A stretch of 64,000 nt of DNA from Candidatus Babeliales bacterium (GCA_963743635.1 CAVUQO010000003.1:352001-416000); one strand, 5' to 3'; positions 3,506 to 34,482 are shown, counted from the stretch's first letter. Notes: generated by a model not told the origin, from the letters alone. Made by a program: numbers and translations.

Positions 3506-3973
3506 TTATTTATATTTATGGGCATGTATCCCGTATACGCTATAAAGATTAAGAGCCTTCTGGATTGAGAATAGCAGATCGTTTGCGACTTGACGTTGTT
3601 TTTCAACTGCTTTTATTTCTTCGTCGTAAAATCTCATTTGTTCTAGGCAAGTAATTGCCAGTTTTAGGTGAGTTGCTTCATGGAGCTGAGAAAAATGAGA
3701 CGCTATCTTTGCATAAAGATTGGCGCAGTTACTTGCATGAAGATCGGCGCAGATAGTATTGTTCTCTTGTATCAATAACTGAGACTTGCTCTCTAATACG
3801 GTAAGTTCGCCAATCAACTTTTCAACTTGCGCTGGAAATTGCTCAATCAGGAGCTGTACTTCTCGATACTCTTCGAGCTTCTGGCTGACCACATTGAAGT
3901 TTTCTGGTGTTATTTCATTCATCGCATGCATGCTTATACAAAAAATGCTGAGCATTAAGACTAATTTTTTCAT
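3506..3973 (-). CDS. Exported coiled-coil protein
   Basis: ISMHA|MN; heptad-rich. Confidence 0.75.
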   Translation of the reverse strand: MKKLVLMLSIFCISMHAMNEITPENFNVVSQKLEEYREVQLLIEQFPAQVEKLIGELTVLESKSQLLIQENNTICADLHASNCANLYAKIASHFSQLHEATHLKLAITCLEQMRFYDEEIKAVEKQRQVANDLLFSIQKALNLYSVYGIHAHKYK

Positions 3974-4017: not shown

Positions 4018-4344
4018 TTATTGAACTCTATCCATCTTGTTTTCGATCATGGCAATATATTGTCCAATACTTGTGCTCAAGTCATGAATGGTCGCTGCAG
4101 TTGGTGCATGCGTAGAATGCAGTGTGTGATCATCTAGTCCGAGATTTTTATAGCGTTCGCGGACCGATTCTTCTTGCGCAATAAGCCTTCCAGCTTCATC
4201 GGGTGTTGGATTTTTTTGCATTGCCAAAGCAGCGGCTTGTTCATTGATGCCACGTAGCGCTGCAATATATGCATTTGCTTCAGCTTGCTGCATCGCATTG
4301 ATGGTTGCCGTAGTAAGGCAGAGGATTAAGAGTAATTTTTTCAT
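4018..4344 (-). CDS. Exported small helical protein
   Basis: TINA|MQ leader. Confidence 0.75.
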   Translation of the reverse strand: MKKLLLILCLTTATINAMQQAEANAYIAALRGINEQAAALAMQKNPTPDEAGRLIAQEESVRERYKNLGLDDHTLHSTHAPTAATIHDLSTSIGQYIAMIENKMDRVQ

Positions 4345-8418: not shown

Positions 8419-9402
8419 ATGATCTTAGAATTTGGCATTTTTGCCATCGTAGTATTCATCTTTTTGATGGTGTTCATTGCAAAAGCAATTTACTTGGTAA
8501 GGCAATCTGAAGTAATGGTCATTGAAAAGTTTGGTAAATTTAGTCGCGTATTGCATCCAGGGATTCACTTTGTGATTCCGTTTGCAGAAACTCCGCATCA
8601 AGTAACCTGGACATTCATCTATCAAGGTGAAGGCAAGCGTTATTATCGTGTGACCAAGCAAGTAACGCGTATTGATATGCGTGAGGCGGTCTATGATTTT
8701 CCAAAGCAAAATGTGATCACTAAAGATAACGTCACCATGGAAATTAACGCGTTGCTCTATTATCAAATTACTGATCCTAAAGCAGCAATGTATGAAGTAT
8801 ATGATCTTCCAGAAGCTATCGAGAAATTAACACAAACAACATTGCGTAACGTCATCGGCTCTCTTGATCTTGATGAATCACTCGTTTCACGTGACCAAAT
8901 CAATGAAAAGTTGCGCATCATTCTTGATGAAGCAACGGATAAGTGGGGCGTCAAAGTGAACCGCGTTGAGCTGCAAGAGGTAAATCCTCCAGCAGACATT
9001 CGTCAGGCGATGGAAAAGCAGATGCGCGCTGAACGCGATCGTCGTGCGGTAATTTTGGAAGCTGAAGGTAAAAAGCGAGCAGCTATTTTGCAAGCAGAAG
9101 GTGCGCAAGAAGCGGCAGTGCTTGATGCACGCGGTGAAGCTGAATCAAAGGCAATTCGTGCCCAAGGTGAAGCGGATGCACGCTTAAAGATTGTTGAGGC
9201 CGAAGCAAAGGCAATTGGCATGATTACTCAAGCGGTGCCGGGCGTCGATCCATTGCCATACATGATTGCGTTGAATTACATCAAAATGATGCCTGAATTA
9301 ACGGCAGGTAAGAATGATAAGCTTATCTTGGTTCCGTACGAGGCAAGTTCACTCGCTGGCTCATTAACGGCAATGAAGAAGATGTTTGAAGAAATCAAAT
9401 AA
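8419..9402 (+). CDS. qmcA: SPFH/band 7 (QmcA/stomatin-like) protein
   Basis: VITKDNV, QTTLRNVIG, WGVKVNRVE, AMEKQMRAERDRRA. Confidence 0.93.
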   Translation: MILEFGIFAIVVFIFLMVFIAKAIYLVRQSEVMVIEKFGKFSRVLHPGIHFVIPFAETPHQVTWTFIYQGEGKRYYRVTKQVTRIDMREAVYDFPKQNVITKDNVTMEINALLYYQITDPKAAMYEVYDLPEAIEKLTQTTLRNVIGSLDLDESLVSRDQINEKLRIILDEATDKWGVKVNRVELQEVNPPADIRQAMEKQMRAERDRRAVILEAEGKKRAAILQAEGAQEAAVLDARGEAESKAIRAQGEADARLKIVEAEAKAIGMITQAVPGVDPLPYMIALNYIKMMPELTAGKNDKLILVPYEASSLAGSLTAMKKMFEEIK

Positions 9403-9416
9403 ACAGAATACATAAC

Positions 9417-9453
9417 AAAAAAGAGGGACCTCTTTATCGGAGGTCCCTCTTTT
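9417..9453. terminator. Bidirectional intrinsic terminator
   Basis: AAAAAAGAGGGACCTC-tttatcg-GAGGTCCCTCTTTT between convergent genes. Confidence 0.85.
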
Positions 9454-9457
9454 CATT

Positions 9458-9538
9458 TCATGAGTGTGATTTATGTTCCTTATTCTTTTCCCGCAGCAAT
9501 GCGCTGGTAAGAAGTAGTGGAATTAATAACTTTTTCAT
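9458..9538 (-). pseudogene. Signal-peptide-only stub closing the GNAT array
   Basis: MKKLLIPLLLTSALLREKNKEHKSHS*; 9499-9551 is 50/53 identical to 10074-10126. Confidence 0.6.
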
Positions 9539-10113
9539 GATCGTACTCTTTTATTTATGTGTAACTTTTTCATCATGAATAACCACATTGGTCTATCATG
9601 CTCTGGTTGGGAATACTGTTGTTTTTTATAAAAATGTTGGGCATCGGAGATACTATTGAGGTACATATAATCAATGTTATTCTGGATAGCGTTATCTTCA
9701 GCTTTTTTTAAAAGTAATGCACCCAATCCTTTACGCTGTTGCTTAGGATCAACAACGAGCCACTCTATTTTGGCGCCATTCATTTTGTTTAGTTCGATCG
9801 TTGAGGGGCAGTCAGGCATTTCATTATAAGCAACAGCGCGCGACTTCGCTTGATATATAATACAACCGAGGAGACAATCAGGACGATTTGAGCGTGTTTT
9901 GCGATAACTTCTAACCGCAACATCAATCCAATTTTTTCGGCAAGCTCTGTGACGAGTGACCGCGGCTGGTGGCGTTATCCAGGTAAATTCTTGCGTAAGA
10001 AGTTTGAGTACGGAGTCTTTATCTGTTTCATGATTAAATGACCTGATGCGCACATCTTCCATTGCATGCATCGATGCGCTGGTAAGAAGGAGTGTAATTA
10101 ATAACTTTTTCAT
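9535..10113 (-). CDS. Exported GNAT acetyltransferase (array member 1)
   Basis: SMHA|ME; acetyl-CoA motif VVDPKQQRKGLGALLL; AQHFYKKQQY. Confidence 0.88.
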   Translation of the reverse strand: MKKLLITLLLTSASMHAMEDVRIRSFNHETDKDSVLKLLTQEFTWITPPAAVTRHRACRKNWIDVAVRSYRKTRSNRPDCLLGCIIYQAKSRAVAYNEMPDCPSTIELNKMNGAKIEWLVVDPKQQRKGLGALLLKKAEDNAIQNNIDYMYLNSISDAQHFYKKQQYSQPEHDRPMWLFMMKKLHINKRVRS

Positions 10114-10117
10114 GATC

Positions 10118-10606
10118 TTACTCTTTACTAATAGTCTTGCGCATGTAAAAGGGTATCTCTGTGTCTTCATAAGCATATCCTAGCTGTTCATAAAAAGATT
10201 GCTTGCCATTGATAGGCTGAAGAAATAGGTGATGGTCTTTTTTAGATGTCTGTATTGATTTTTCAACATGTTGCATGAGTAATTGGCCGTATCCCTTACA
10301 TCGATATTCGCGTGCAACAGATACTGCTTTGATTTCAGTCTCCGTTATTGATGAGCGATCCGTTGTTTGATATACAATGGCTCCCAATACTCTGTCTTCG
10401 CGCTTAGCCCGTGGTTTGACAAGAACATTTATTGTTATGTTAGGGTTACTTAAAATGTTGATGTCAATTAATGATTTGAATAGATCGAGGGCATTGCTTT
10501 GTTTTGCGGGATCAAACGGCACAATGCGCACATCTTCCATTGCATGCATCGATGCGCTGGTAAGTAGGATGGTTAGTAAGGCAAAAAGAGATCGTTTAGT
10601 ATACAT
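10118..10606 (-). CDS. Exported GNAT acetyltransferase (member 2)
   Basis: SMHA|ME; VSVAREYRCKGYGQLLM; FYEQLGY. Confidence 0.9.
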   Translation of the reverse strand: MYTKRSLFALLTILLTSASMHAMEDVRIVPFDPAKQSNALDLFKSLIDINILSNPNITINVLVKPRAKREDRVLGAIVYQTTDRSSITETEIKAVSVAREYRCKGYGQLLMQHVEKSIQTSKKDHHLFLQPINGKQSFYEQLGYAYEDTEIPFYMRKTISKE

Positions 10607-10619
10607 ATAAATTCCTTTC

Positions 10620-11279
10620 TTAGATTAAAAATTTAGTAAAGTGAAGACCTATGCCTTTGTTTTTGTTTTCTGTGCGGTCGTCTTTCACTTGCTTAAGCAT
10701 ATCTTGCATGTCTTCATTCATAGGGAGTGCCATCGAATCATGGGTTGTAGCATCGGCAGTGGTTTTAAAATATCCATGTTTTTCATAGAATGATCGAGTT
10801 CTATTAATTGCAACGAGGGCGATAATGTCTTGATCGGTCTTCTGCGCTACTTGCCCAATATGATTCAATAATCGTTGTCCAAATCCGTGTCCAGCACGCT
10901 TGTTAGTTTTGCGAAATTTATTAGCTATGGCCAGATAATCGAGCCGTAAAATATTAAGATAAGCTGATGAGTGTTTATATCTTCGTATGTCTGAAAAAGC
11001 TGCTTTATGCGGTATTGTTTCATTGTTCCAGATCGCAAAGCCAGCCGGTTTTTTTAGATATTCTAACACGGCGATTTTTGTTTCCGGATGATCTGTAGGT
11101 TTTGTAAGTTCTGAAGGGGGTTCTTCAGCATCAGGAAATGCGTTTAAGAAGATAGCTGAAACTTTTTTACCATGGGTCACGGGATTATAATCCACAATGC
11201 GTATCGCATCCTGATCCATTGCATGCAGCGAAGCACTGGCAAGAAAGAGAGCGAGTAGGTAGGAGTGTATTAATTTCAT
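10620..11279 (-). CDS. Exported GNAT acetyltransferase (member 3)
   Basis: SLHA|MD; LAIANKFR..AGHGFGQRLL; FYEKHGY. Confidence 0.88.
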   Translation of the reverse strand: MKLIHSYLLALFLASASLHAMDQDAIRIVDYNPVTHGKKVSAIFLNAFPDAEEPPSELTKPTDHPETKIAVLEYLKKPAGFAIWNNETIPHKAAFSDIRRYKHSSAYLNILRLDYLAIANKFRKTNKRAGHGFGQRLLNHIGQVAQKTDQDIIALVAINRTRSFYEKHGYFKTTADATTHDSMALPMNEDMQDMLKQVKDDRTENKNKGIGLHFTKFLI

Positions 11280-11291
11280 CCTTTGTCCTTG

Positions 11292-11942
11292 TTAAATGAA
11301 ATTTTTATTTAACAAGGTGGATTTTTGCTGTTCATAGTTTTCTTCACGTTTGGCGATTACCTCACGTAATATCTCTTTCATAGTATCATTCAGCGGCAGT
11401 GCCATGCGGTCTATTGAGAGTTGGCGAGGCAGAGTGTTGATGAAACCATTCTTTTCATAAAAAGGTCGCGAACCATAAGCTGCATGGAGGGATATGACAT
11501 CAGTCTCATATTCGTTCGCTTTTTCTCTAATGTAGTGTAATAAAGAAGAGCCAAGGCCCTTGCCTGCTCTGGTGTCAGTGTGGCGATGATTCTTGTGTAT
11601 TGCGATATGGAGGATCCGTACTATGTTAAAGTGTGTACGATTGTGGGTAGGATTATATATATCATTGAAGGCTTGATGCTTGGTCAATATTTCCCTTTCC
11701 CAGATTGCAAAACCAACGGTTTTCCCGTTCTCTTTCAGCACCGTTATATGCGCGTTGAGAGAAGTTGGCGTATTAATGAATACTGGATCAAGATCTGCGC
11801 CGCCAAATGCCTCTGAAAAGATATTTTGAACTTTGAGGGCATATTTTTGTGTAGGATCGTATTCAATATAGGTGAGATCTTTATGCTCCATTGCATGCAG
11901 CGATGCGCTGGCAAGAAGGAGAGTGAGTAATAATTTTTTCAT
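11292..11942 (-). CDS. Exported GNAT acetyltransferase (member 4, paralog of member 3)
   Basis: SLHA|ME; IAIHKNHR..AGKGLGSSLL; FYEKNGF. Confidence 0.88.
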   Translation of the reverse strand: MKKLLLTLLLASASLHAMEHKDLTYIEYDPTQKYALKVQNIFSEAFGGADLDPVFINTPTSLNAHITVLKENGKTVGFAIWEREILTKHQAFNDIYNPTHNRTHFNIVRILHIAIHKNHRHTDTRAGKGLGSSLLHYIREKANEYETDVISLHAAYGSRPFYEKNGFINTLPRQLSIDRMALPLNDTMKEILREVIAKREENYEQQKSTLLNKNFI

Positions 11943-12463
11943 GAGATTTTCCTTTTTTCTGTTGTTATATCGCTATCACGATTGAGATATTTTATCATGG
12001 TTAAAGATTCCGGCGCTTTCTCTCTGAATGCGAGCTTTTTTGTATAAAATTTTTTCGATTCTGGAGTAGCATTTATTTCTATTAAATCGATGTTATTTCT
12101 TGCCTGTACACCATCTATAAGCATCTGCACGAGGTTGGTGCCATAACCCTTAGATCGCATTGATTCAACGATAGCAAGGTTATATACATGGCGCTTTATG
12201 CGATTATTTGCAGTAAGAAAATCCCGAAAAATGGCAAATCCAATAAACGTATTATTGAGTAATAATGCGCAATTGCTGCTTTTTTGATCGTATAAGGCGT
12301 CTGACGCACTGCCATCAAATGTGCTACGATATAATTCTTCCGCTGCATGCCCATGGACCGCTTTATTAAGCGCGACGAGTTGAAGGTCATCAGGATTACT
12401 CCAGAGTGATGTGCTGCTCAGCAATAGAAGCGGTAATAATATATTAATCCTGAGAAGAGTCAT
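11939..12463 (-). CDS. Exported GNAT acetyltransferase (member 5)
   Basis: Hydrophobic leader; LAIVESMRSKGYGTNLV; KKFYTKKLAF. Confidence 0.87.
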   Translation of the reverse strand: MTLLRINILLPLLLLSSTSLWSNPDDLQLVALNKAVHGHAAEELYRSTFDGSASDALYDQKSSNCALLLNNTFIGFAIFRDFLTANNRIKRHVYNLAIVESMRSKGYGTNLVQMLIDGVQARNNIDLIEINATPESKKFYTKKLAFREKAPESLTMIKYLNRDSDITTEKRKIS

Positions 12464-12468
12464 AAGGT

Positions 12469-13074
12469 TTACTTCTTGCACCGTTTAAATGGATTAATGC
12501 TATCGATTATTCGTCTAGAAAATGAAGGAGTAAGATTTTTTATCATGATGGTTGAATCATTGGCGTCAATATAGGTGAAATTGCGTAACTCAAATGAGTG
12601 TTTTGATTCATCCCTTGTCCATGTAGACATGCGCATAATGTGCATTTCAGCAGCCGTTTCTTCCAGACATTGTATGGCCTTAGGCTCATATCTTTCATAT
12701 CCTTCTGTCATGATAAGATCATCGATCTTGAAAAGTTCTGTATTGGCGCGGCGCGTGCGTTGGCGGCTATAGAGTGCGATTCCTGCTATTTCGTTATTCA
12801 CTAGAAACACCGTTGCTGTTTGCTGACCAATGCGGTCATTGTGAGACGCCAGAGGATCAGTCGTTCCTTCCAAGGCGCTCGGCATGAGCTGACTTATTCT
12901 AGATTGCGGAGCATCGGCAGGGATCCTGGCAGCCGTAAACATTGCTTGTGCTTGCTCAGCATGGCTTGCAGGATTGAAAGGCACCATAGTGAGTTTCTGC
13001 GTGCATCCCATGAGAGAAATGCCGCTGGTAATTGCGATCAGCGCAATGAATATATTATTTTTTAAGGTCTTCAT
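12469..13074 (-). CDS. Divergent GNAT-fold lipoprotein (member 6)
   Basis: Lipobox-like LMGC; shares MVPFNP and IAGIALY elements; CoA motif degenerate (EGYERYEPKAI). Confidence 0.7.
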   Translation of the reverse strand: MKTLKNNIFIALIAITSGISLMGCTQKLTMVPFNPASHAEQAQAMFTAARIPADAPQSRISQLMPSALEGTTDPLASHNDRIGQQTATVFLVNNEIAGIALYSRQRTRRANTELFKIDDLIMTEGYERYEPKAIQCLEETAAEMHIMRMSTWTRDESKHSFELRNFTYIDANDSTIMIKNLTPSFSRRIIDSINPFKRCKK

Positions 13075-13091
13075 AGTGTTGTTCTCCATTT

Positions 13092-13658
13092 TTAGTTATC
13101 AAAAATATTATTGATGTAATTATCAAATACAATGAGTGTGGGCTCGGAGGTAATATGCTTATACATATGGCTCCTGAATGGCCCCATACGTTTGAAGCCA
13201 AGCTTCGCATAAAAATTAATAGCATTGCCTGTCGATAGTACGGTGAGAGCTTTTATGCCGGAATCACGCGCTTGCTGTTCTATCTGAGCCATAAAATATG
13301 CAGCATAATGCAATCCGCGATACGCTTTATGTATGATTAGATAGTCGATATTACGCTTTAGTTCTTCAGAATCGGTATAAATTAGGGTTCCTACTGCAGT
13401 ATCATGAGCTAATAAAATTTTTATGATTCGGTTGGAGCGCAGGGAGGCTAAGATAAAATCAAATGAGGTATTGAAAAAGTCTTTTTTGAATAGATCACGC
13501 ATATACGGTAGATGTGTTTCTTCAAAGGGCACAGCCTTGAGAGTGAATGACTGGTGGATAGCCGCAAGCTCTCGATACATCTGTTCAGGATTCGGGCTCA
13601 TAGCTTGAATAGCTATAGTCTGTGCTATAATTGCTAATCCAATTAATAATTTCTTCAT
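13092..13658 (-). CDS. Exported GNAT acetyltransferase (member 7)
   Basis: AIQA|MS; LIIHKAYRGLHYA; AINFYAKLGF. Confidence 0.88.
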   Translation of the reverse strand: MKKLLIGLAIIAQTIAIQAMSPNPEQMYRELAAIHQSFTLKAVPFEETHLPYMRDLFKKDFFNTSFDFILASLRSNRIIKILLAHDTAVGTLIYTDSEELKRNIDYLIIHKAYRGLHYAAYFMAQIEQQARDSGIKALTVLSTGNAINFYAKLGFKRMGPFRSHMYKHITSEPTLIVFDNYINNIFDN

Positions 13659-13841: not shown

Positions 13842-14429
13842 TTAGGCGAGTTGAGGAATGCATTGAAGATTATTGGCCGGAATCGCATCAAGAGCTTGAA
13901 AAGGTTCAAGATTCTTAACCATATAATTTGAATAAGAGCTTGTCGCCTCAAAGCCGAGTCTGGTATAGAACGGCGTAGCGCGTGATACCGCGTTTAAAGA
14001 GATGCTGGTTATTCCTTGGCTGCGGGATAATGCTTCAAATTGCTGCATAAAATGGGTTCCGAGCTTGTGATTGTGATAATCGGGATCTATAGCCAATAGA
14101 TTGACGTAGCGCATAACCTGGCCATTTTGATTGATTTCGTCTTGGTACTTGATAAAGCCAATGACAACGCCATTAAACATCAAGACGTGGGCTGAGGGAT
14201 TGCCCTTGCCGCATAGGAGTGGGGTGGTAACGTACTCAGGAGGCACGCTGAAGGCCCTTGAATAGATTGATTTTGCCTGTTTGCCATGTTTGGCTTCTAC
14301 AAAAGGCACAACTTTAAGATCTAAGCCTTGTTTTACCGTAAAGTTGGCTGTTTGCTGATCCGCGCAAAGAGGTGCGCTGCCAGCCAAAATGAAGAGTAGC
14401 GCAAAGAGTCTACTTCTGAAAATATTCAT
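13842..14429 (-). CDS. Exported GNAT acetyltransferase (member 8)
   Basis: Leader ...APLCA; LAIDPDYHNHKLGTHFM; ATPFYTRLGF. Confidence 0.88.
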   Translation of the reverse strand: MNIFRSRLFALLFILAGSAPLCADQQTANFTVKQGLDLKVVPFVEAKHGKQAKSIYSRAFSVPPEYVTTPLLCGKGNPSAHVLMFNGVVIGFIKYQDEINQNGQVMRYVNLLAIDPDYHNHKLGTHFMQQFEALSRSQGITSISLNAVSRATPFYTRLGFEATSSYSNYMVKNLEPFQALDAIPANNLQCIPQLA

Positions 14430-14544: not shown

Positions 14545-14629
14545 GGGTGTTGCAGGGATGCAGAGACTATGTCTATTGCAGCTTTTCCCAAGCCGCCAGC
14601 CTCACTCAGTTCCTTGCGCAGGGTGTTAA
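14545..14629. repeat. Direct-repeat copy of the ABC-F 3' end (other copy 15352-15443)
   Basis: 14557-14629 matches 15369-15443 except a 2-nt deletion. Confidence 0.9.
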
Positions 14630-14634
14630 TATTA

Positions 14635-15279
14635 TCATATCTTATTGGCTTTGATCTCTTTAATGAGAGAATTGCAGAATAAATCACTGCATTGGTAGTC
14701 ATTTCTTCGATAGAAATTTTTAGGCCTATCGAGAGATACTAAAGAGACGGTAGATACACCATCTTCAGCGGCTAGATCCTCAAATTCTTTTAATGCCTGA
14801 GTGCCAATGCCATTGCCACGATAGTGAGCCCCTACTGAAAAATAACAGAGATGACGGATCTTGTGATATTTTAGGGGTAACTCCTTGCCATAAAACCATT
14901 TATGCGTGAGATAATAGAATAAATCCACCGTCGTATAATCATAAACTGTATCATCTTTATAAATCATAGAGCCCATTACAGTATTATTTGAGACTATGGC
15001 GAATGCTTTGTGGGTCTTTTCTTTCCCATACGGTTCACCCCCGTTTAGCACAGAAGGCACACAATAGGAGGGGAATGCCTCAGCCCAAATCTTAGATGCT
15101 TTCTCTCCATGTTTTGCATGGTTAAAAGCTACCAATTTGGGTTGGTTACGTTGGTTAATTGATTGGTTAATTGATTGGTTAATTGATTGTGCTAAAAATG
15201 ATTGAAACATGCCAAAAGCAGGTACATAGCCTGCGAAGGCCATGGCCATAGCAAAAAATGCTTTTTTGATTCTATTCAT
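14635..15279 (-). CDS. Exported GNAT acetyltransferase (member 9)
   Basis: PAFG|MF; FSVGAHYRGNGIGTQAL; NFYRRNDY; (SINQ)3 tandem repeat. Confidence 0.88.
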   Translation of the reverse strand: MNRIKKAFFAMAMAFAGYVPAFGMFQSFLAQSINQSINQSINQRNQPKLVAFNHAKHGEKASKIWAEAFPSYCVPSVLNGGEPYGKEKTHKAFAIVSNNTVMGSMIYKDDTVYDYTTVDLFYYLTHKWFYGKELPLKYHKIRHLCYFSVGAHYRGNGIGTQALKEFEDLAAEDGVSTVSLVSLDRPKNFYRRNDYQCSDLFCNSLIKEIKANKI

Positions 15280-15384
15280 ACATTGTCCCTTTTTTATTAC
15301 AGTTCCTTTAATTACATATAGAATACCATGTGTATAAAGGCTTGTAAAAAGGGGTATTGCAGGGATGAGATGCAGAGACTATGT

Positions 15385-17249
15385 CTATTGCAGCTTTTCC
15401 CAAGCCGCCATTGCCTCACTCAGTTCCTTGCGCAGGGTGTTAAATTTAGTCTGAGCAGTATCAAATTCAGGGGTACCGTATTCAAGATCAGCAAACTGCA
15501 GGCCGACTTGGGCTATCTGTTGCTCATATTTTTCGATTTTACGCTCAAGCAGTCGGAGTTCCCTTTTCTGATCGTCAGCTTTGTCATCCGTATCTGGAGC
15601 AGCTGAAGCTGTTTTTGCCGCTGATGTTTTCTTTTCTTTTGGTTCAGTCAGATTAGCGAGGCATTCTTTTTGATAGCCAAAATCATCATAATTGCCGTGA
15701 TAGATATGAGTGCCTTCTGGTGTCAGTTCCATAACGTGGGTAGCCAGGTCATTGATAAAATCCCGATCATGCGAAACGAAAAGCATGGTGCCTTCATAAC
15801 TTTGCAATGCCTTCAATAACACTTGCTTAGCGAAGATATCAAGATGGTTAGTCGGTTCATCAAGCAGGAGTAGGTTTGCTTGTTGGAGCAATACGCTGGT
15901 CATACCAACTCTATTTTTTTCACCACCACTGAGAACTTTTACTTTTTTATTCACATCATCATTGCTAAAAAGCATGGCGCCGAGCATGGTGCGTGCTGAT
16001 TGTTGGGTGGCGCTTGGGCAACGCAACAATATGTTCTCAATGACTGTTTTATTGCCATCAAGTGCACGGGTTTGATCTTGGTCGAAAATTGTATGATGTA
16101 CCTTCTCGCCAAAGGTTATGGTGCCAGATTGGCAGGGCAATGAGCCGGTAATCATATTAAATAACGTGGTTTTACCGACGCCATTGGGCGCAACTAATGC
16201 AACTTTTTGTCCACGTTCAATGGTGAATGAAACATTCTTAAAGATCTCACGTTTGCCAAAATGTTGGCTTACATTGTTCACCGTCAACACAGTACGCGCC
16301 GGAACGTTGCGTCGGAGGAAAGGTGAAATGACATTGTGCGCGGTGATGGCGGCAATACGATCAGTTCCATTTTCTCAAGCTGTTTTATCATACTTTGTGC
16401 CATCTTTGCTTTGGAGGCAGATGCGCGAAAGCGGTTGATCGTTTCTTTTTTTTGTTTGATATCTTTTTGTTGCTCGTTATACGCCTGTTCAAGTAAGGCA
16501 GTACGTGCTTCTTTTTGCTCTTCATAATCAGCATAACTGCCGGTATACATCATGCCATTACCCAGCTCAAGCTCGTAAATATGAGAACAAAGCTCATTAA
16601 GGAGGTAGCGTTCATGGCAGACAATCATAAAGCCAAACGATGCTTGATGCAGAAAATTTAAAAACCATTCTTTTGCAAAGATATCCAAGTGGTTGGTAGG
16701 TTCGTCAAACAGGTAAAAATCAGCCTCTTCAAGAAGGAGTTTGGCAAGAACGATTCGCATTTTCCAGCCGACGCTCAAATGCTGTACAGGCTCATGAAAG
16801 CGACTTTTATCAAAACCAAGACCTTGCAAAATGCGTTCTGCATGCGCACGCTTTTGTTCTGGATTGAGTTGCAAGAGCCGTTCATGAATATCAGCATAAC
16901 GGTTAAGATGGTCATGAACCGGATCGGTTTCAATTTTTTTCTCTAGGATTTCAGCTTCAAGCTGCAAAGCGGCGATTTCGGTAAATACGCTGAGCGCTTC
17001 ATCTAATATGCTTTTATCCGAATCCAAGACCACTTCTTGAGGCATATATGCAATTTTTTTGTTACTCAGTATGGTAATAGCGCCGCTATCAAGCATTTGT
17101 GGATGATGAATAGCTTTGAGCAGCGTTGATTTGCCCGATCCATTACGGCCAACAAGCCCGACCCGTTGGGATGCATCCACGGTGAAGGAAATGTTGTTAA
17201 AGATTGGTTGTGTGCCGAATGTTAAAGTAACGTTTTTTGCATATATCAT
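15385..17249 (-). CDS. ABC-F family ATPase (Uup/YheS-like), frameshifted near 16290-16330
   Basis: GRNGSGKST, LSVGW, DEPTNHLD in 16284..17291; APNGVGKTT, LSGGEKNR, DEPTNHLD in 15385..16290; removing two single bases restores MSFTFPPTQRSGRTVLTV. Confidence 0.9.
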
Positions 17250-17403
17250 GCTCTTATATCCTTGGTAAATGAAGCGTATGAGGAAAGCCAAGCTGTGAAT
17301 GATGACAATTTCCGGACAAACAGATTGTTTGCATAGAAAAATGTAATTGTTTTGTTAAGCTTACAGACTGTAGTATTTGTTATACGCATACTCTAGGATT
17401 TAA

Positions 17404-23269: not shown

Positions 23270-24589
23270 TAGATTTCTCCAGGGCCATTATCCTCATCGG
23301 ATTTTTTGGTGAAGATCAGAACTTCAAGCACGCGTTTATCGCTTGCTTTTTGTACTTGAAAGTAATGATTTTTATAAAGAATTCGTTCACCTTTTTTGGG
23401 TAAATGCTGCAATTGCTCGGTTAGAAAACCAGCAAGCGTGATCGAGTCTTCTGATTCAAAGGTGATACCCAAATGGCTTGCAAGGCTTTCGAGTGGTGTG
23501 CTGGCATCAACGAGCCAACCACCTTGTTTGAGCGCAATAATTTTTTCATGTGAAGGATCATGTTCGTCACTAATTTCGCCGACGATTTCTTCCAAGATAT
23601 CTTCAAGTGTAATGAGCCCCGTAATGCTGCCATGCTCATTGAGTACGATTGCAATGTGCATGTGCTGCTGACGAAATTCTCGCAGGAGTTGATTTATTTT
23701 CACGCTTTCAGGAATAAACATAATCGGACGCACGATATCTTTGAGTGGCTTATCTTCATTGCGGGTGATGTAGCCAAACACGTCTTTCAAGTGCACCATG
23801 CCGATGATGTTATCTTGTTGCCCATTATATACCGGTAATCGGGTAAAATGCCGTTTGCCAAATATTTCAAGCGTATCTCTGATGGTGGCGGTTACATTTA
23901 CTGAAACGATATCGGTTGCAGGCACCATGATATCTTTAACGGGAGTCAGTCCAAGATCGAAAATGTTTTTAAGCATTTCACTTTTTTCTTGTTCCATAAG
24001 CCCTTTTTCATTGATGTAATTGATCAAGAATTGAATTTCTTTTTCGGAAGATACCCATTCAACGCCGCCACTCAACCGTGTGCCGCCGAGTGAATATACG
24101 ATGAAATCAGTCAGTTTAAGTAGAATTGTCACGATATGGATAAAGGAAGTAGAAAATGATATTGGTTATCCACAATGTTGATGGAAACAGTCTTCTCTCC
24201 ATGCGATTTTGCAAGATTTTTGGGTAATATTTCACCAAATATGAGAATTGCGAACGTGGCAAAACCAATACCCAGCGAAAAGCCAAGACCGCCCGTGATA
24301 TGAAAGCTGGCAAAGAATGCTTTCAATAATTTGAGTACCTAATGATGCAGCAGTCACTTCTGCAAGGCTGCTCGCAATCAAAATGGTAATCAACACACGA
24401 TGAGGCGTTTTTTCCAGTGCTTGAAAAAAATGCGCCATATTTATTGGTTGATGCGGCTAATTCTTTGAGTTTGAATAGCCGCAGAGCAGTGATGCTAGTT
24501 TCAAGAAATGAGAATAATGCGCGTGCAGTCAATGCTATTACAAAAAAAATAGCGGGTGACGACACGCTTTGCATACTACAGGGTTCCAT
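23269..24589 (-). CDS. HlyC/CorC (CNNM + CBS + CorC_HlyC) family protein, frameshifted
   Basis: [26 protein letters not shown] pair HFTRLPVY and [16 protein letters not shown], spread over four ORF pieces. Confidence 0.88.
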
Positions 24590-24639
24590 ATATAACTTTA
24601 CAATCCTTATATAATTAATAAAATTCATATTACTGAGTA

Positions 24640-26744
24640 TTATTCGTGTTTCATCAGTTTCTGCAAGAATTTCTTCATATCCATCTTCTCCGTCTTCTAG
24701 CTCTTGCAATTCTTTATCAAAGAATGTGTGCAGTTTTTTGCTGCGTGATGGATGGCGAAATTTGCGCAATGCTTTAACTTCAATTTGACGAATACGTTCA
24801 CGGGTAACTGAGAAGTCTTTACCAACTTCTTCAAGCGTATGCTCGGAGGCAACATCGATACCAAAACGCATTTTAAGTACTTTTTCTTCACGTGGAGTAA
24901 GTGTTTTAAGCACTTCGCGAACTCGTTCTTTCAGATCATTATTGCAACGGTATCAGAAGGTGAAAAATCAGTATCACTTTCAATAAAATCTTTAATGGAC
25001 GCATCTTCACTATCACCAACCGGTGTTTCAAATGAAATAGGCTCTTTAGAAATCTTGATGATATTTTTAATCTTCTTTTCATCAATATTAAGTTCTTTTG
25101 CCAATTCAGCATGGCTTGGTTCACGGCCATGTTCTTGAATAAAGGTACGTTTGATTTTATTGATCTTATTGAGTGTTTCAACCATATGAACCGGCACACG
25201 AATGGTACGTGATTGATCGGCAATTGCACGGGTAATTGCTTGGCGGATCCACCAGGTTGCATAGGTTGAGAATTTAAATCCACGCTCGAATTCAAATTTT
25301 TCAACCGCTTTCATCAAGCCGATATTACCTTCTTGAATCAAATCAAGAAAGTGCAGTCCGCGATTGACATATTTTTTGGCAATATTAACCACAAGCGCAA
25401 GTTTGCTTTTGCAAGATCATCTTTTGCGCGTTTATCTTTGACTTGTCCAGTCATGAATTGTTGAAAGTATTTAAACATGAGTGAATGTGGCAGACCAACT
25501 TCAACTTCAATTTTTTTGATCTCTTTTGCAGCTGCCACGTATTGCGATCAAGTTCTTCAATAGCGTGCAATTGATCTTCAGCGGTTTTTTGATCGCAAGT
25601 AATGGCTTTAATTGCTTTCAGTTGATCTTGAGAAGCATAATTTCTTTTTCTTGATTTTTTTAATATATTTTTCAATTTTTTTGCCAAGCTTTTTAATGAG
25701 CTTATTGGAAAGTTTAATCGTGCGAATAGTTTCGCCGATTTTTTCTTTATTCTCGCGCACCTTTTGAAGCATCTCATCTTTTTTCTCTTCAGAATCAAGC
25801 TTTGCCACGATAGCTTAAATAGATCTTTTCTTCATTATCAATCAGATCTTTAATCTCTTGAATGGTATCAAAAAGTGCTTTTTTTTCTTTTTCGATATTA
25901 GGAAGATTTTCTTCATCAAACTCAGAGAATTGAATAATATCTTTCAGAGCAACGGTATTTTTCTGAAGCTTTTCGCCCATCCATACAAATTCTTTATGAA
26001 TAACCGGAAAGCATGAAATAGCATTAAGACTATCTTTTTTGCTCTGGGCGATTTGTTCAGCGATGACTGTTTCAGTTTTTTTATTTAAAAGAGGAATTTT
26101 ACCAATGTCACGCAAATAACATTTGACCGGATCAGTGATATAGGCAGAACTTGCAGTACGGCTGGCTCTTTTTCATCGCCTTCATCTTCTTCATCATTAT
26201 CTTCATCAAAATGATCGGCGCCTAAATCAAGAGAACTCGAAATTTTAGCTTTGATGTTCAGGGGAGAATGCTCTTCATCCTGATCAAATGCTTCCAGGTC
26301 ATCAGGATTTCCCTCAAGCTCTTCTTGCATAATGAAATCAATGTTTTCTTTTTCCATGTGTCGGATGAGATCATTGGTTTCTTGTTCATTGAGATTGTTC
26401 TTTTCACCAAATTCGATCAATTCTTCATAGGTAAGAATGCCGTGTTTACGGCCTTTATCTACGAGTTCATCAACAAGATCTTGTTTTAAATCGAGACTTG
26501 AGCCTTTACTGACCTCTACTTTGACGTGAGGCTTCGGTGCGGCCTTTGATTTAGCTTTAGCCGCAGCTTTTGCGCCCGTTTTGGGCTTAGCGGTAACTTT
26601 TCGTGCTTTTAGTTCAGCAGGAGTTGTTTCTTCTTCATTTTCAGACTCTTCGGTTCTTGTTTTTGAAAATGCTGAAACGGCCGTTTTAAATAGGCGGCTT
26701 AACGCTGTTTCGGTCTTTTTTTCTTTTTTAATTTTTTTTGTCAT
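24640..26744 (-). CDS. rpoD: RNA polymerase primary sigma factor, about six frameshifts (likely assembly indels)
   Basis: Region 1.1 [50 protein letters not shown], region 4 [18 protein letters not shown]; downstream of dnaG. Confidence 0.93.
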
Positions 26745-33861: not shown

Positions 33862-34482
33862 TTACTCCTGGGCCTTTTTATAGCTGCGAATGAAATGCAT
33901 GATGCCATTAAATTGGAATTTCTTGAGTTCAGCAAGATCAGTAATGCCATTGCGGTTAAGGATGTACTGATAAGTCTCATTCTTCACGCCCATGAGCTTC
34001 ATGGACTCTTGCAGTTGGGTTATCTGTTCAGAATCAATGAATTCTCTGTCTCTTTTTTCTATATACTTGCGCTCAGCTTCGCCATCATCGTCTTCTGTTT
34101 CGAGTGCACAGAGTGATAAGACTGCGTATCTACGCATATAAGTATTGGTGCTGCCTATCGCCTGATTGCCCGGTTTTTCGCTTTTTAATGGTCTGGTATC
34201 TTGCACAAATTGACCAGATGGCGCGTGAATCAAGCGCGTATGCAATACCGATTCGGCATCAGCTAATCGTTCTGCAAAATGCCAAATAAATATGTTGTTC
34301 TGGTGTAGCGCTTCTTCTACCGCCTCGTAGACGGCAACTAAGTTTGCATACTTATGCAAATTACTTTTGGAGTTTTTCTTAGCTCCTCTCATGCGCATTT
34401 TAGCTTGCAAAAAAGCTTGCGTGAGTTGTCTGATATCATCAGACATGAGATGAGTTTTATTCGATTGGTGTTCTTGTTCCAT
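33862..34482 (-). CDS. ERF-family single-strand annealing protein
   Basis: KYANL..VYEAV, TRLIHAPSGQ, QAIGSTNTYMRRYAV, EDDDG. Confidence 0.88.
   Translation of the reverse strand: MEQEHQSNKTHLMSDDIRQLTQAFLQAKMRMRGAKKNSKSNLHKYANLVAVYEAVEEALHQNNIFIWHFAERLADAESVLHTRLIHAPSGQFVQDTRPLKSEKPGNQAIGSTNTYMRRYAVLSLCALETEDDDGEAERKYIEKRDREFIDSEQITQLQESMKLMGVKNETYQYILNRNGITDLAELKKFQFNGIMHFIRSYKKAQE

Follow-up and report, generated by a model that had tools for sequence, protein, structure and literature searches.

Shared leader DNA among diverged GNAT genes of a tandem array: a proposed case of peptide selection combined with local gene conversion

Why should neighbouring genes whose catalytic domains have lost obvious nucleotide similarity carry signal-peptide DNA that is closely similar and, in one pair, identical over 41 nucleotides? 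The question is raised by nine tandem minus-strand paralogs (G1-G9) encoding predicted secreted proteins of the GNAT acetyltransferase family, which lie between an SPFH/band-7 gene and a split ABC-F gene in a 64,000-nucleotide stretch of a Candidatus Babeliales genome (the window, C3:352001-416000 of a three-contig genome of 1.45 Mb with 42% G+C; positions are counted from its first nucleotide). The explanation we prefer, with a probability of roughly 0.6, is that a leader peptide under selection has been combined with gene conversion restricted to the 5' ends of the genes and with gene birth and death in a tandem array of putative effectors, with no dedicated system of cassette swapping.

Leader DNA shared among diverged genes

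Five copies of the leader DNA, all on the minus strand, are found in the array and nowhere else in the genome (blastn, whole 1.45 Mb). The copies in G1 (10046-10131) and G2 (10524-10569) share an exact tract, 10046-10086 versus 10524-10564, in which 41 of 41 nucleotides are identical with a mismatch right at both edges. None of 100 shuffles of the window gave such a match, and when one mismatch is allowed it grows to 45/46 (10046-10091 versus 10524-10569). Read on the minus strand, the 41-nucleotide tract is LTSASMHAMEDVR(I). The copy in G4 (11887-11944) agrees with 10058-10115 of G1 at 52 of 58 positions, and the G2 and G4 leaders match at 31 of 34 (blastn); that in G3 (11215-11257) agrees with 11887-11929 at 39 of 43 (blastn). 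The fifth copy (9499-9551; 50/53 against 10074-10126, blastn) belongs to a leader-only stub at the end of the array (G0frag, here G0; 9458-9538, minus strand; open reading frame (ORF) map and blastn), which consists of a 26-codon ORF (MKKLLIPLLLTSALLREKNKEHKSHS, then a stop) whose ATG overlaps the G1 stop codon (ATGA) and which is spanned by contigs of two sequencing runs, X1 and X3, with 0 differences. Compared with these leaders, the G1-G4 domains have codon-aligned nucleotide identities of 0.37-0.52, and a repeat scan of the array found no further repeat of at least 20 nucleotides above chance linking the genes. An earlier note on this DNA had reported the exact match, a match of about 52/58 between 11887-11944 and the G1 leader, a further copy at 11215-11245 and catalytic domains without obvious nucleotide similarity; all four observations hold, the second at exactly 52/58 and the third as part of 11215-11257.

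The leaders of the same genome's other secreted proteins, aligned at the cleavage site and restricted to pairs with mature parts unrelated by BLAST, served as the null. Their mean identity over 57 nucleotides is 0.363 (standard deviation 0.07, 99th percentile 0.544, 11,315 pairs), whereas G1-G4 leader pairs score 0.63-0.88 on the same measure. The likeness extends to codon choice: in the peptide shared by G1 and G2, 11 of 11 degenerate codons are identical (P = 1.8e-6 under leader codon usage), and when the six G1-G4 pairs are pooled, 48 of 65 identical leader residues are encoded by the same codon, against rates of 0.298 (8,111/27,210) in unrelated leaders of the genome and of 0.37-0.54 in the G1-G4 domains. 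Selection on the peptide is insufficient to account for this, because synonymous sites are identical too. The earlier note had named synonymous sites as the place where its proposal might fail, and the comparison (48/65 versus about 0.3-0.5) went in its favour.

The G1 leader is a mosaic, its 5' half resembling G0 and G4 and its 3' half being identical to G2. The G0/G1 homology already begins about 13-18 nucleotides ahead of the ATG, where one copy encodes KRVRS and a stop (the end of G1) and the other, in another frame, SKE and a stop (the end of G2). The G1/G2 tract extends 14 nucleotides past the predicted cleavage site. Near-identity with sharp borders, including synonymous and non-coding positions and set within otherwise diverged genes, is the pattern that gene conversion would be expected to leave. 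The homology of G0 to the other leaders stops inside the leader, immediately before the palindrome TGCATGCA. As a separate observation, the leader core GCATCGATGCATGCA (10060-10082, in the same place in G2-G4 and in gene M2 of the metagenome contig L004, described below) holds two overlapping perfect palindromes, GCATCGATGC and the one just named.

Leader peptide, domain tree and a related array

The leader of G1-G4 is a putative Sec-type signal of 17-23 residues, (M)KKLL..LLL[AT]SAS[LM]HA followed beyond the predicted cleavage site by M[ED], with a basic n-region, an h-region, Ala at -1 and L or M at -3; the von Heijne rule tolerates L or M at that position, although they are not typical of it. 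In an alignment of 37 metagenome representatives of the subfamily, one per 50%-identity cluster, the mean fraction of the top residue is 0.68 over residues 1-18 and 0.34 over the rest, with Met at +1 in 37 of 37 rows, Ala at -1 in 95% and Ser at -4 in 92%. The leader is thus the best-conserved segment of the subfamily, which argues that peptide selection explains much of its likeness; the premise of the earlier note that signal peptides usually diverge fastest fails here. Nearly the same leader, for example MKKLLLTLLLASASLHAME…, is carried by most of the top hundred profile matches, all of which come from different clusters. Arrays of the family in other genera lack leader-restricted conservation (leader 0.25-0.58 versus 0.42-0.50 for the rest), with one recent pair at 0.80 versus 0.64.

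The methionine at +1 extends to the genome at large. Genome-wide, 133 ORFs begin with a basic and hydrophobic N-terminal stretch followed by [AGS]-Met-polar (D/E/Q/N/S). In a residue-swap control the other residues, each put at the position of Met, yield 5 to 81 ORFs (the runner-up being Ala, at 81), and relative to background frequencies Met exceeds most of them 5-9 fold. ORFs with this signature in the window include 145-489, 518-844, 954-1769, 1783-2211, 3506-3973 and 4018-4344, all on the minus strand. A crude and noisy (-3,-1) site picker likewise finds Met+1 at 59 of 412 sites, against a background of 2.4%. By these counts, the [AGS]-Met-polar ending is a genome-wide signal-peptide signature and is not specific to the GNAT genes; in the available portions of the literature treating Babeliales together with signal peptides, no description of a Met+1 ending or of a leader conserved across this family was found. 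These two features are more unusual than the sharing of leader DNA, and the Met+1 ending could give a simple rule for predicting the secretomes of these uncultured parasites.

In a tree of 93 rows built from the domains only, with leader classes assigned by our own regular expressions or by eye, a starred split (96) places G1-G4 in a half of 52 rows, 38 of which carry A-type leaders, and G5-G9, with leader types of their own, fall on the opposite side. The A-type label requires 15 changes on this tree, whereas shuffling gives 30.9 and none of 500 shuffles reached so low a number. Given this concentration in the G1-G4 half, leader and domain trees are broadly congruent. The exceptions are P0043 and P0062, which carry an A-type leader within a clade (99, starred) whose other members have a different leader and a linker of 15-30 residues; these two are the best candidates for a replaced N-terminal module. 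In addition, P0002 joins a G1-type leader to a G3/G4-type domain.

G1, G2 and G3/G4 lie in different subclades with long branches between them, and each has a closer relative elsewhere, from which it follows that the paralogs predate the species. These relatives also bear on the direction of copying between G1 and G2. The closest relative of G1, P0019, reads …MYAMENVSIRPF where G1 reads …MHAMEDVRIRSF; position -2 is H in G1, as in G2, and Y in the three closest domain relatives of G1 (P0019, P0025 and P0029); and G2 and its relative P0028 both read TSASMHAMED. Because the G1 leader ends like that of G2 and P0028 and unlike that of P0019, G2 is suggested as the donor.

A search with a degenerate leader pattern matched one metagenome contig, L004, and nothing in genome contigs or in viral contigs (0 matches in each); a search for related loci with profile A3 returned 16 stretches, none of them confirmed, which by our estimate is about the number expected by chance. 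L004 (2,162 nucleotides) has the same terminator and the same SPFH-gene end as the window, together with three such genes (216-2067) with similar leaders. Its order is M2 (G1-like) and then M3 (G2-like), the last gene before the terminator, whereas the window has G2, G1 and the stub, so the array has been rearranged or members have been gained or lost. G2 and M3 are just 43% identical despite the conserved synteny, and the grouping of M2 with G1 is weak (SH-aLRT 87, 30% identity).

Explanations weighed

On the preferred explanation, two layers would act together. Selection on the peptide would keep the leader alike across many organisms and, in addition, DNA would be copied from neighbour to neighbour by 5'-restricted gene conversion and unequal recombination. 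The 41-nucleotide exact patch would be a trace of such copying, probably from G2 to G1; the patches of 43-58 nucleotides joining G1, G3 and G4 would be older traces; and the leader-only stub at the array's end would be what gene turnover left behind. Exchange would be confined to the leader because this is the sole stretch similar and long enough for homologous recombination, for which the genome encodes RecA (438 bits). The window also encodes an ERF-superfamily single-strand-annealing protein (PF04404, E 5e-17; 33862-34482, minus strand), 19 kb from the array, a possible RecA-independent route to recombination at short repeats. The outcome would be mosaic leaders, changes in copy number and an occasional new combination of leader and domain. 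If this is correct, it illustrates how short motifs under selection can end up as the sole substrates for recombination when the effector arrays of reduced genomes evolve fast.

Several observations weigh against such copying, or limit its extent. The leaders are not clearly more alike within genomes than between them, as concerted evolution would have them: mean leader identity is 0.78 within the array, 0.73 between the window and L004 and 0.68 within L004, and the same codon is used at 76 of 106 residues between genomes, compared with the 48/65 within the window and 13/17 within L004. With likeness within genomes about equal to that between them, only the G1=G2 patch is specific to this genome and there is no wider homogenisation; nucleotide-level constraint, or homogenisation before the lineages split, fits the between-genome likeness equally well. 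The likeliest orthologs, G2 and M3, use the same codon as often in the leader (6/10) as in the domain (32/58), and between M3 and P0016 (85% overall) 6 of 21 leader residues differ, versus 19 of 149 elsewhere, so that single leader positions are not frozen but toggle among a few allowed residues. The genome as a whole does not favour leaders either: nucleotide identity is higher in the leader than in the mature part in only 34 of 108 diverged pairs of secreted paralogs, and a leader more alike than the mature protein is therefore no general rule here. Finally, the contigs of four runs from two studies, all of one strain and liable to lose rare variants, showed no polymorphic chimeras, a result that neither supports nor excludes ongoing recombination.

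The alternative that survives best is selection alone, in which peptide and nucleotide constraint (the codon and mRNA needs of translation start, Sec targeting and a coupled operon) would produce the likeness without recombination. The strong conservation of the leader in the 37 representatives and the between-genome codon use just described both accord with it, as does the exclusive use of CTT for Leu at position -8 in both genomes (6 of 6 codons). It is nonetheless unlikely, since homology passes upstream of the ATG into non-homologous coding ends in different frames, goes on for 14 nucleotides beyond the cleavage site, ends sharply in the exact tract at points unrelated to the n-, h- and c-regions, and recurs at DNA level in a leader-only stub. 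Furthermore, unrelated leaders show no such codon preference, the close orthologs M3 and P0016 differ at the leader residues counted above, and neither an RNA structure signal (positions -25 to +75 at all ten starts, z -1.3 to +0.85 against mononucleotide shuffles) nor an Rfam family was found in the leader region, the only Rfam matches being two sub-threshold chance matches at the terminator.

Somewhat less probable still is the fuller version of what the earlier note had proposed, namely that leaders are homology arms flanking payloads and that whole cassettes are excised, reinserted and exchanged between strains in the manner of polymorphic toxins or integrons. That note had called the leader DNA a recombination anchor, and copying and exchange of leader DNA is borne out by the 11/11 codons, the mosaic G1, the out-of-frame upstream homology and the stub, but a payload-swapping system is not: the array genes are complete with their own starts, immunity genes and orphan 3' modules are absent, and a scan of 29 other ORFs of at least 110 amino acids (145-37540) found no integrase or transposase, the ERF protein being its only recombination protein. 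In favour of the proposal, each payload does sit between two leader copies, the stub does lie at the terminator-proximal end, the ERF protein is encoded 19 kb away, and the G1-like and G2-like genes have the reverse order in L004, although the M2-G1 grouping there has an SH-aLRT of 87% and an identity of 30%. The separate comparison of leader and domain trees that the note had called for came out mostly against exchange, as leader type broadly tracks the domain tree, with P0043 and P0062 as the exceptions in its favour. An approximately unbiased (AU) test does reject a single A-type clade (delta lnL 270, p 4e-57), but borderline variants of leader classes set by eye inflate this result, which shows merely that leader type is no clean clade marker. 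The read comparison for junction variants that the note had proposed yielded no leader-to-leader joint in the contigs of the four runs, which for one strain has little power.

About as improbable is a reading that starts from the peptide ending. A mature N-terminus of Met-Asp/Glu/Asn/Gln is a NatB-type substrate and is stabilising under the N-end rule in eukaryotes, so the leader might be no generic Sec signal but a lineage-specific export and processing code whose mature Met-Asp/Glu/Gln/Asn start evades the host N-degron; shared leader DNA, as the only recombination-competent stretch and one that reshuffles leader-payload pairs, would then be a consequence. If this were true, effectors freed into the protist host would escape N-degron degradation.

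Recent duplication followed by runaway divergence of the domains under diversifying selection, with leaders keeping the ancestral sequence, is a poor prospect. A conserved signal joined to a hypervariable mature part does occur in families of secreted effectors and toxins, and this family evolves fast, as the low identity of G2 and M3 despite their synteny illustrates. Even so, the explanation is largely refuted by the tree, in which G1, G2 and G3/G4 are closer to other organisms' proteins and sit in separate subclades, and by synonymous sites that are near baseline in the domains and at 0.74 in the leaders.

An assembly artefact, in which a collapsed or chimeric metagenome assembly would have created the identical tract, can be set aside with near certainty: short-read contigs do break at both copies of the 41-nucleotide repeat and the window has other oddities (the split ABC-F and rpoD genes), but contigs from reads of the four runs match the window across the array with 0 differences in the pieces listed, and two of them (10096-10685 and 10235-11045) span the G2 copy with both flanks and thereby also settle how the flanks at the G1 copy are paired, which argues that the repeat is not an artefact.

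Genomic setting and known systems

The genome encodes four homologues of ATP/ADP translocases (TLC transporters), compared with 0 in 14 control genomes, and is small and host-dependent. Downstream of the array lies the SPFH/band-7 gene (8419-9402, plus strand; ORF map), and the array is closed by an intrinsic terminator (9418-9454, minus strand) with a 15-pair stem and a T run, also kept in L004. Beyond the stub follow, all on the minus strand, G1 (9535-10113; 192 amino acids, 75% identical to P0019), G2 (10118-10606; 162 amino acids, closest relative P0028 at 67%), the GNAT-like G3 (10620-11279; 219 amino acids, 38% identical to G4) and G4 (11292-11942; 216 amino acids). The remaining members differ in their leaders, that of G5 (11939-12463) ending …SSTSLWS before NPDD and that of the family member G6 (12469-13089) being lipobox-like (LMGC), an ending (…SLMGC) also kept in its relative P0061; G7 (13092-13658) has a third type (…IAIQA, followed by a MSPNPEQMYRELAAIHQ linker), G8 (13842-14429) a fourth (…SAPLCA before DQQ), and G9 (14635-15279) ends …YVPAFG before M and three tandem SINQ repeats (QSINQSINQSINQ, 15130-15190) directly after the leader. 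Gaps from G7 to G0 are -4 to +13 nucleotides, and these tight gaps and the single terminator make G7-G0 look like one operon, although each array gene has its own start and ribosome site.

Eight of the nine array ORFs match GNAT profiles at E<=1e-4, and seven (G1, G2, G4, G5, G7, G8 and G9) pass the curated Pfam GNAT cut-off (PF00583/PF13508/PF13673); G3 falls under it (24.0 versus 27 bits, E 5e-5) and G6 has no Pfam match, while in the genome search all nine are matched by family profile A2, itself made from these rows. The AlphaFold model of G4 (pLDDT 91.3) has the GNAT fold, and its top Foldseek matches are all GNATs, with AtaT/TacT-type toxins, GCN5/PCAF-type enzymes and N-terminal acetyltransferases among them. 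The GNAT acetyl-CoA loop has the motif R/Q-x-x-G-x-G/A, and in the 37 rows its glycines G129 and G131 are conserved at 89% and 100%, respectively. By eye, G6 lacks the Gly-rich loop and G7 lacks G-x-G, and the sequences suggest that these two may be non-catalytic family members. The closest solved relatives by profile are acetyltransferases of the GCN5/PCAF type and N-terminal acetyltransferases (1qst, 1q2c and 5gcn; E ~9e-10), generic matches that fix no substrate because identity is merely 13-17%. A profile search of 1.84 billion cluster representatives assigns 177 of them to this large, mostly metagenomic family at E<=1e-10, and of 80 genomes from the same taxonomic family 43 have a match; as an exported, GCN5-like family by prediction, its members would be good candidates for host-directed effectors.

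Leader-restricted similarity also occurs in other families of this genome, as in the tandem pair C2:542265/543281 (leader 0.93 versus mature 0.49). Among further observations, the leader MERNKIIAVAVLAIGIIAWRMGA is carried by at least 10 genes, and leader-alike multigene families of secreted proteins lie at C2:542265-544507, at C2:1816-3774, 109168-115734 and 381407-383224, at C3:1314-8194 and 751777-753060, and at C3:500885-509096. A second tandem pair of secreted GNAT-family genes (C3:269340-270533; profile E ~1e-10 to 1e-11) has unrelated leaders.

At the other end of the array, a displaced copy of the ABC-F 3' end (14557-14634) lies directly downstream of G9 as a direct repeat with the resident 3' end (15369-15448, stop at 15385-15387). 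The repeat comprises the last 64 nucleotides of the gene and 16 nucleotides downstream of it (42/42, then 34/36 with a 2-nucleotide offset), so that G9 is bracketed by a displaced gene 3' end. One low-depth X3 contig joins 15412 back to 14599, which may reflect a circle, a tandem arrangement or an artefact of the graph, and one contig of run X4 is 2 nucleotides short at 15411. The ABC-F gene itself (15385-17291, minus strand) is split into overlapping ORFs (16284-17291 and 15385-16290), and the sigma-70 gene (24323-26744) is in three Pfam-matched pieces (regions 1.1, 2-3 and 4), between which lies an ORF that has no match (25451-25798). From 16104 to 16210, contigs of three runs give one and the same sequence, which departs from that of the window at seven positions. 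The split genes may be assembly errors or real pseudogenes.

Compared with known systems, the array resembles polymorphic toxin, contact-dependent inhibition (CDI) and Rhs loci in having a conserved junction beside variable enzymatic parts, scars of recombination and a displaced gene 3' end. Such loci have a large delivery domain, immunity genes and promoterless orphan cassettes for C-terminal toxin parts; the array has none of these, and its only orphan is the conserved leader and not the variable part. The ORF map shows complete genes, with the narrow gaps given above and no extra ORFs, and the polymorphic-toxin-like cassettes of the earlier note find no counterpart in it. Nor is the array an integron by its content, as no integrase or recombinase other than the ERF protein was found among the 29 ORFs, and the leader windows lack a structure signal. 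The precursors of conotoxins and of amphibian antimicrobial peptides, encoded by eukaryotic multi-exon genes, combine a conserved signal with a hypervariable mature peptide and thus show the same inverted gradient of conservation, although the mechanisms proposed for them differ. GCN5/PCAF, the N-terminal acetyltransferases and the AtaT/TacT toxins share the GNAT fold and acetyl-CoA core with the array proteins, which differ from the GCN5/PCAF type in their predicted export and in lacking a bromodomain or partner domains.

Two bacterial systems offer comparisons at the level of the shared N-terminal segment. In phytoplasmas, the available excerpt of one account describes the SVM signal (PF12113) as a conserved signal-peptide motif on different effectors, such as SAP11 and SAP54 (PMC8026896). 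As in the array, a host-dependent bacterium with a reduced genome places one conserved N-terminal signal on diverse secreted effectors (PMC8026896); the mature parts of the SVM proteins are, on this partial account, mutually unrelated and their genes lie in regions rich in mobile units, whereas the mature parts encoded by the array are all GNATs of one family, and PF12113 itself has no match in any of the nine proteins (Pfam scan, E<=0.1). In Helicobacter pylori, intragenomic homologous recombination transfers short stretches close to the start codon from one to another of the paralogs babA, babB and babC, according to the excerpt available (PMC4552749). There, the tracts lie ~60-240 bp from the start, and the chimeras are polymorphic among isolates and alter phase variation (PMC4552749, in part), whereas in the GNAT genes the tracts are of 41-58 nucleotides within a nine-gene tandem array in which the contigs of the four runs, all of one strain, showed no polymorphic chimeras. 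What the two have in common is that the genes become chimeric while their bodies stay different (PMC4552749, same excerpt), and the sharing of leaders described here, taken as a DNA phenomenon, would add one more example of gene conversion confined to the 5' ends of tandem genes.

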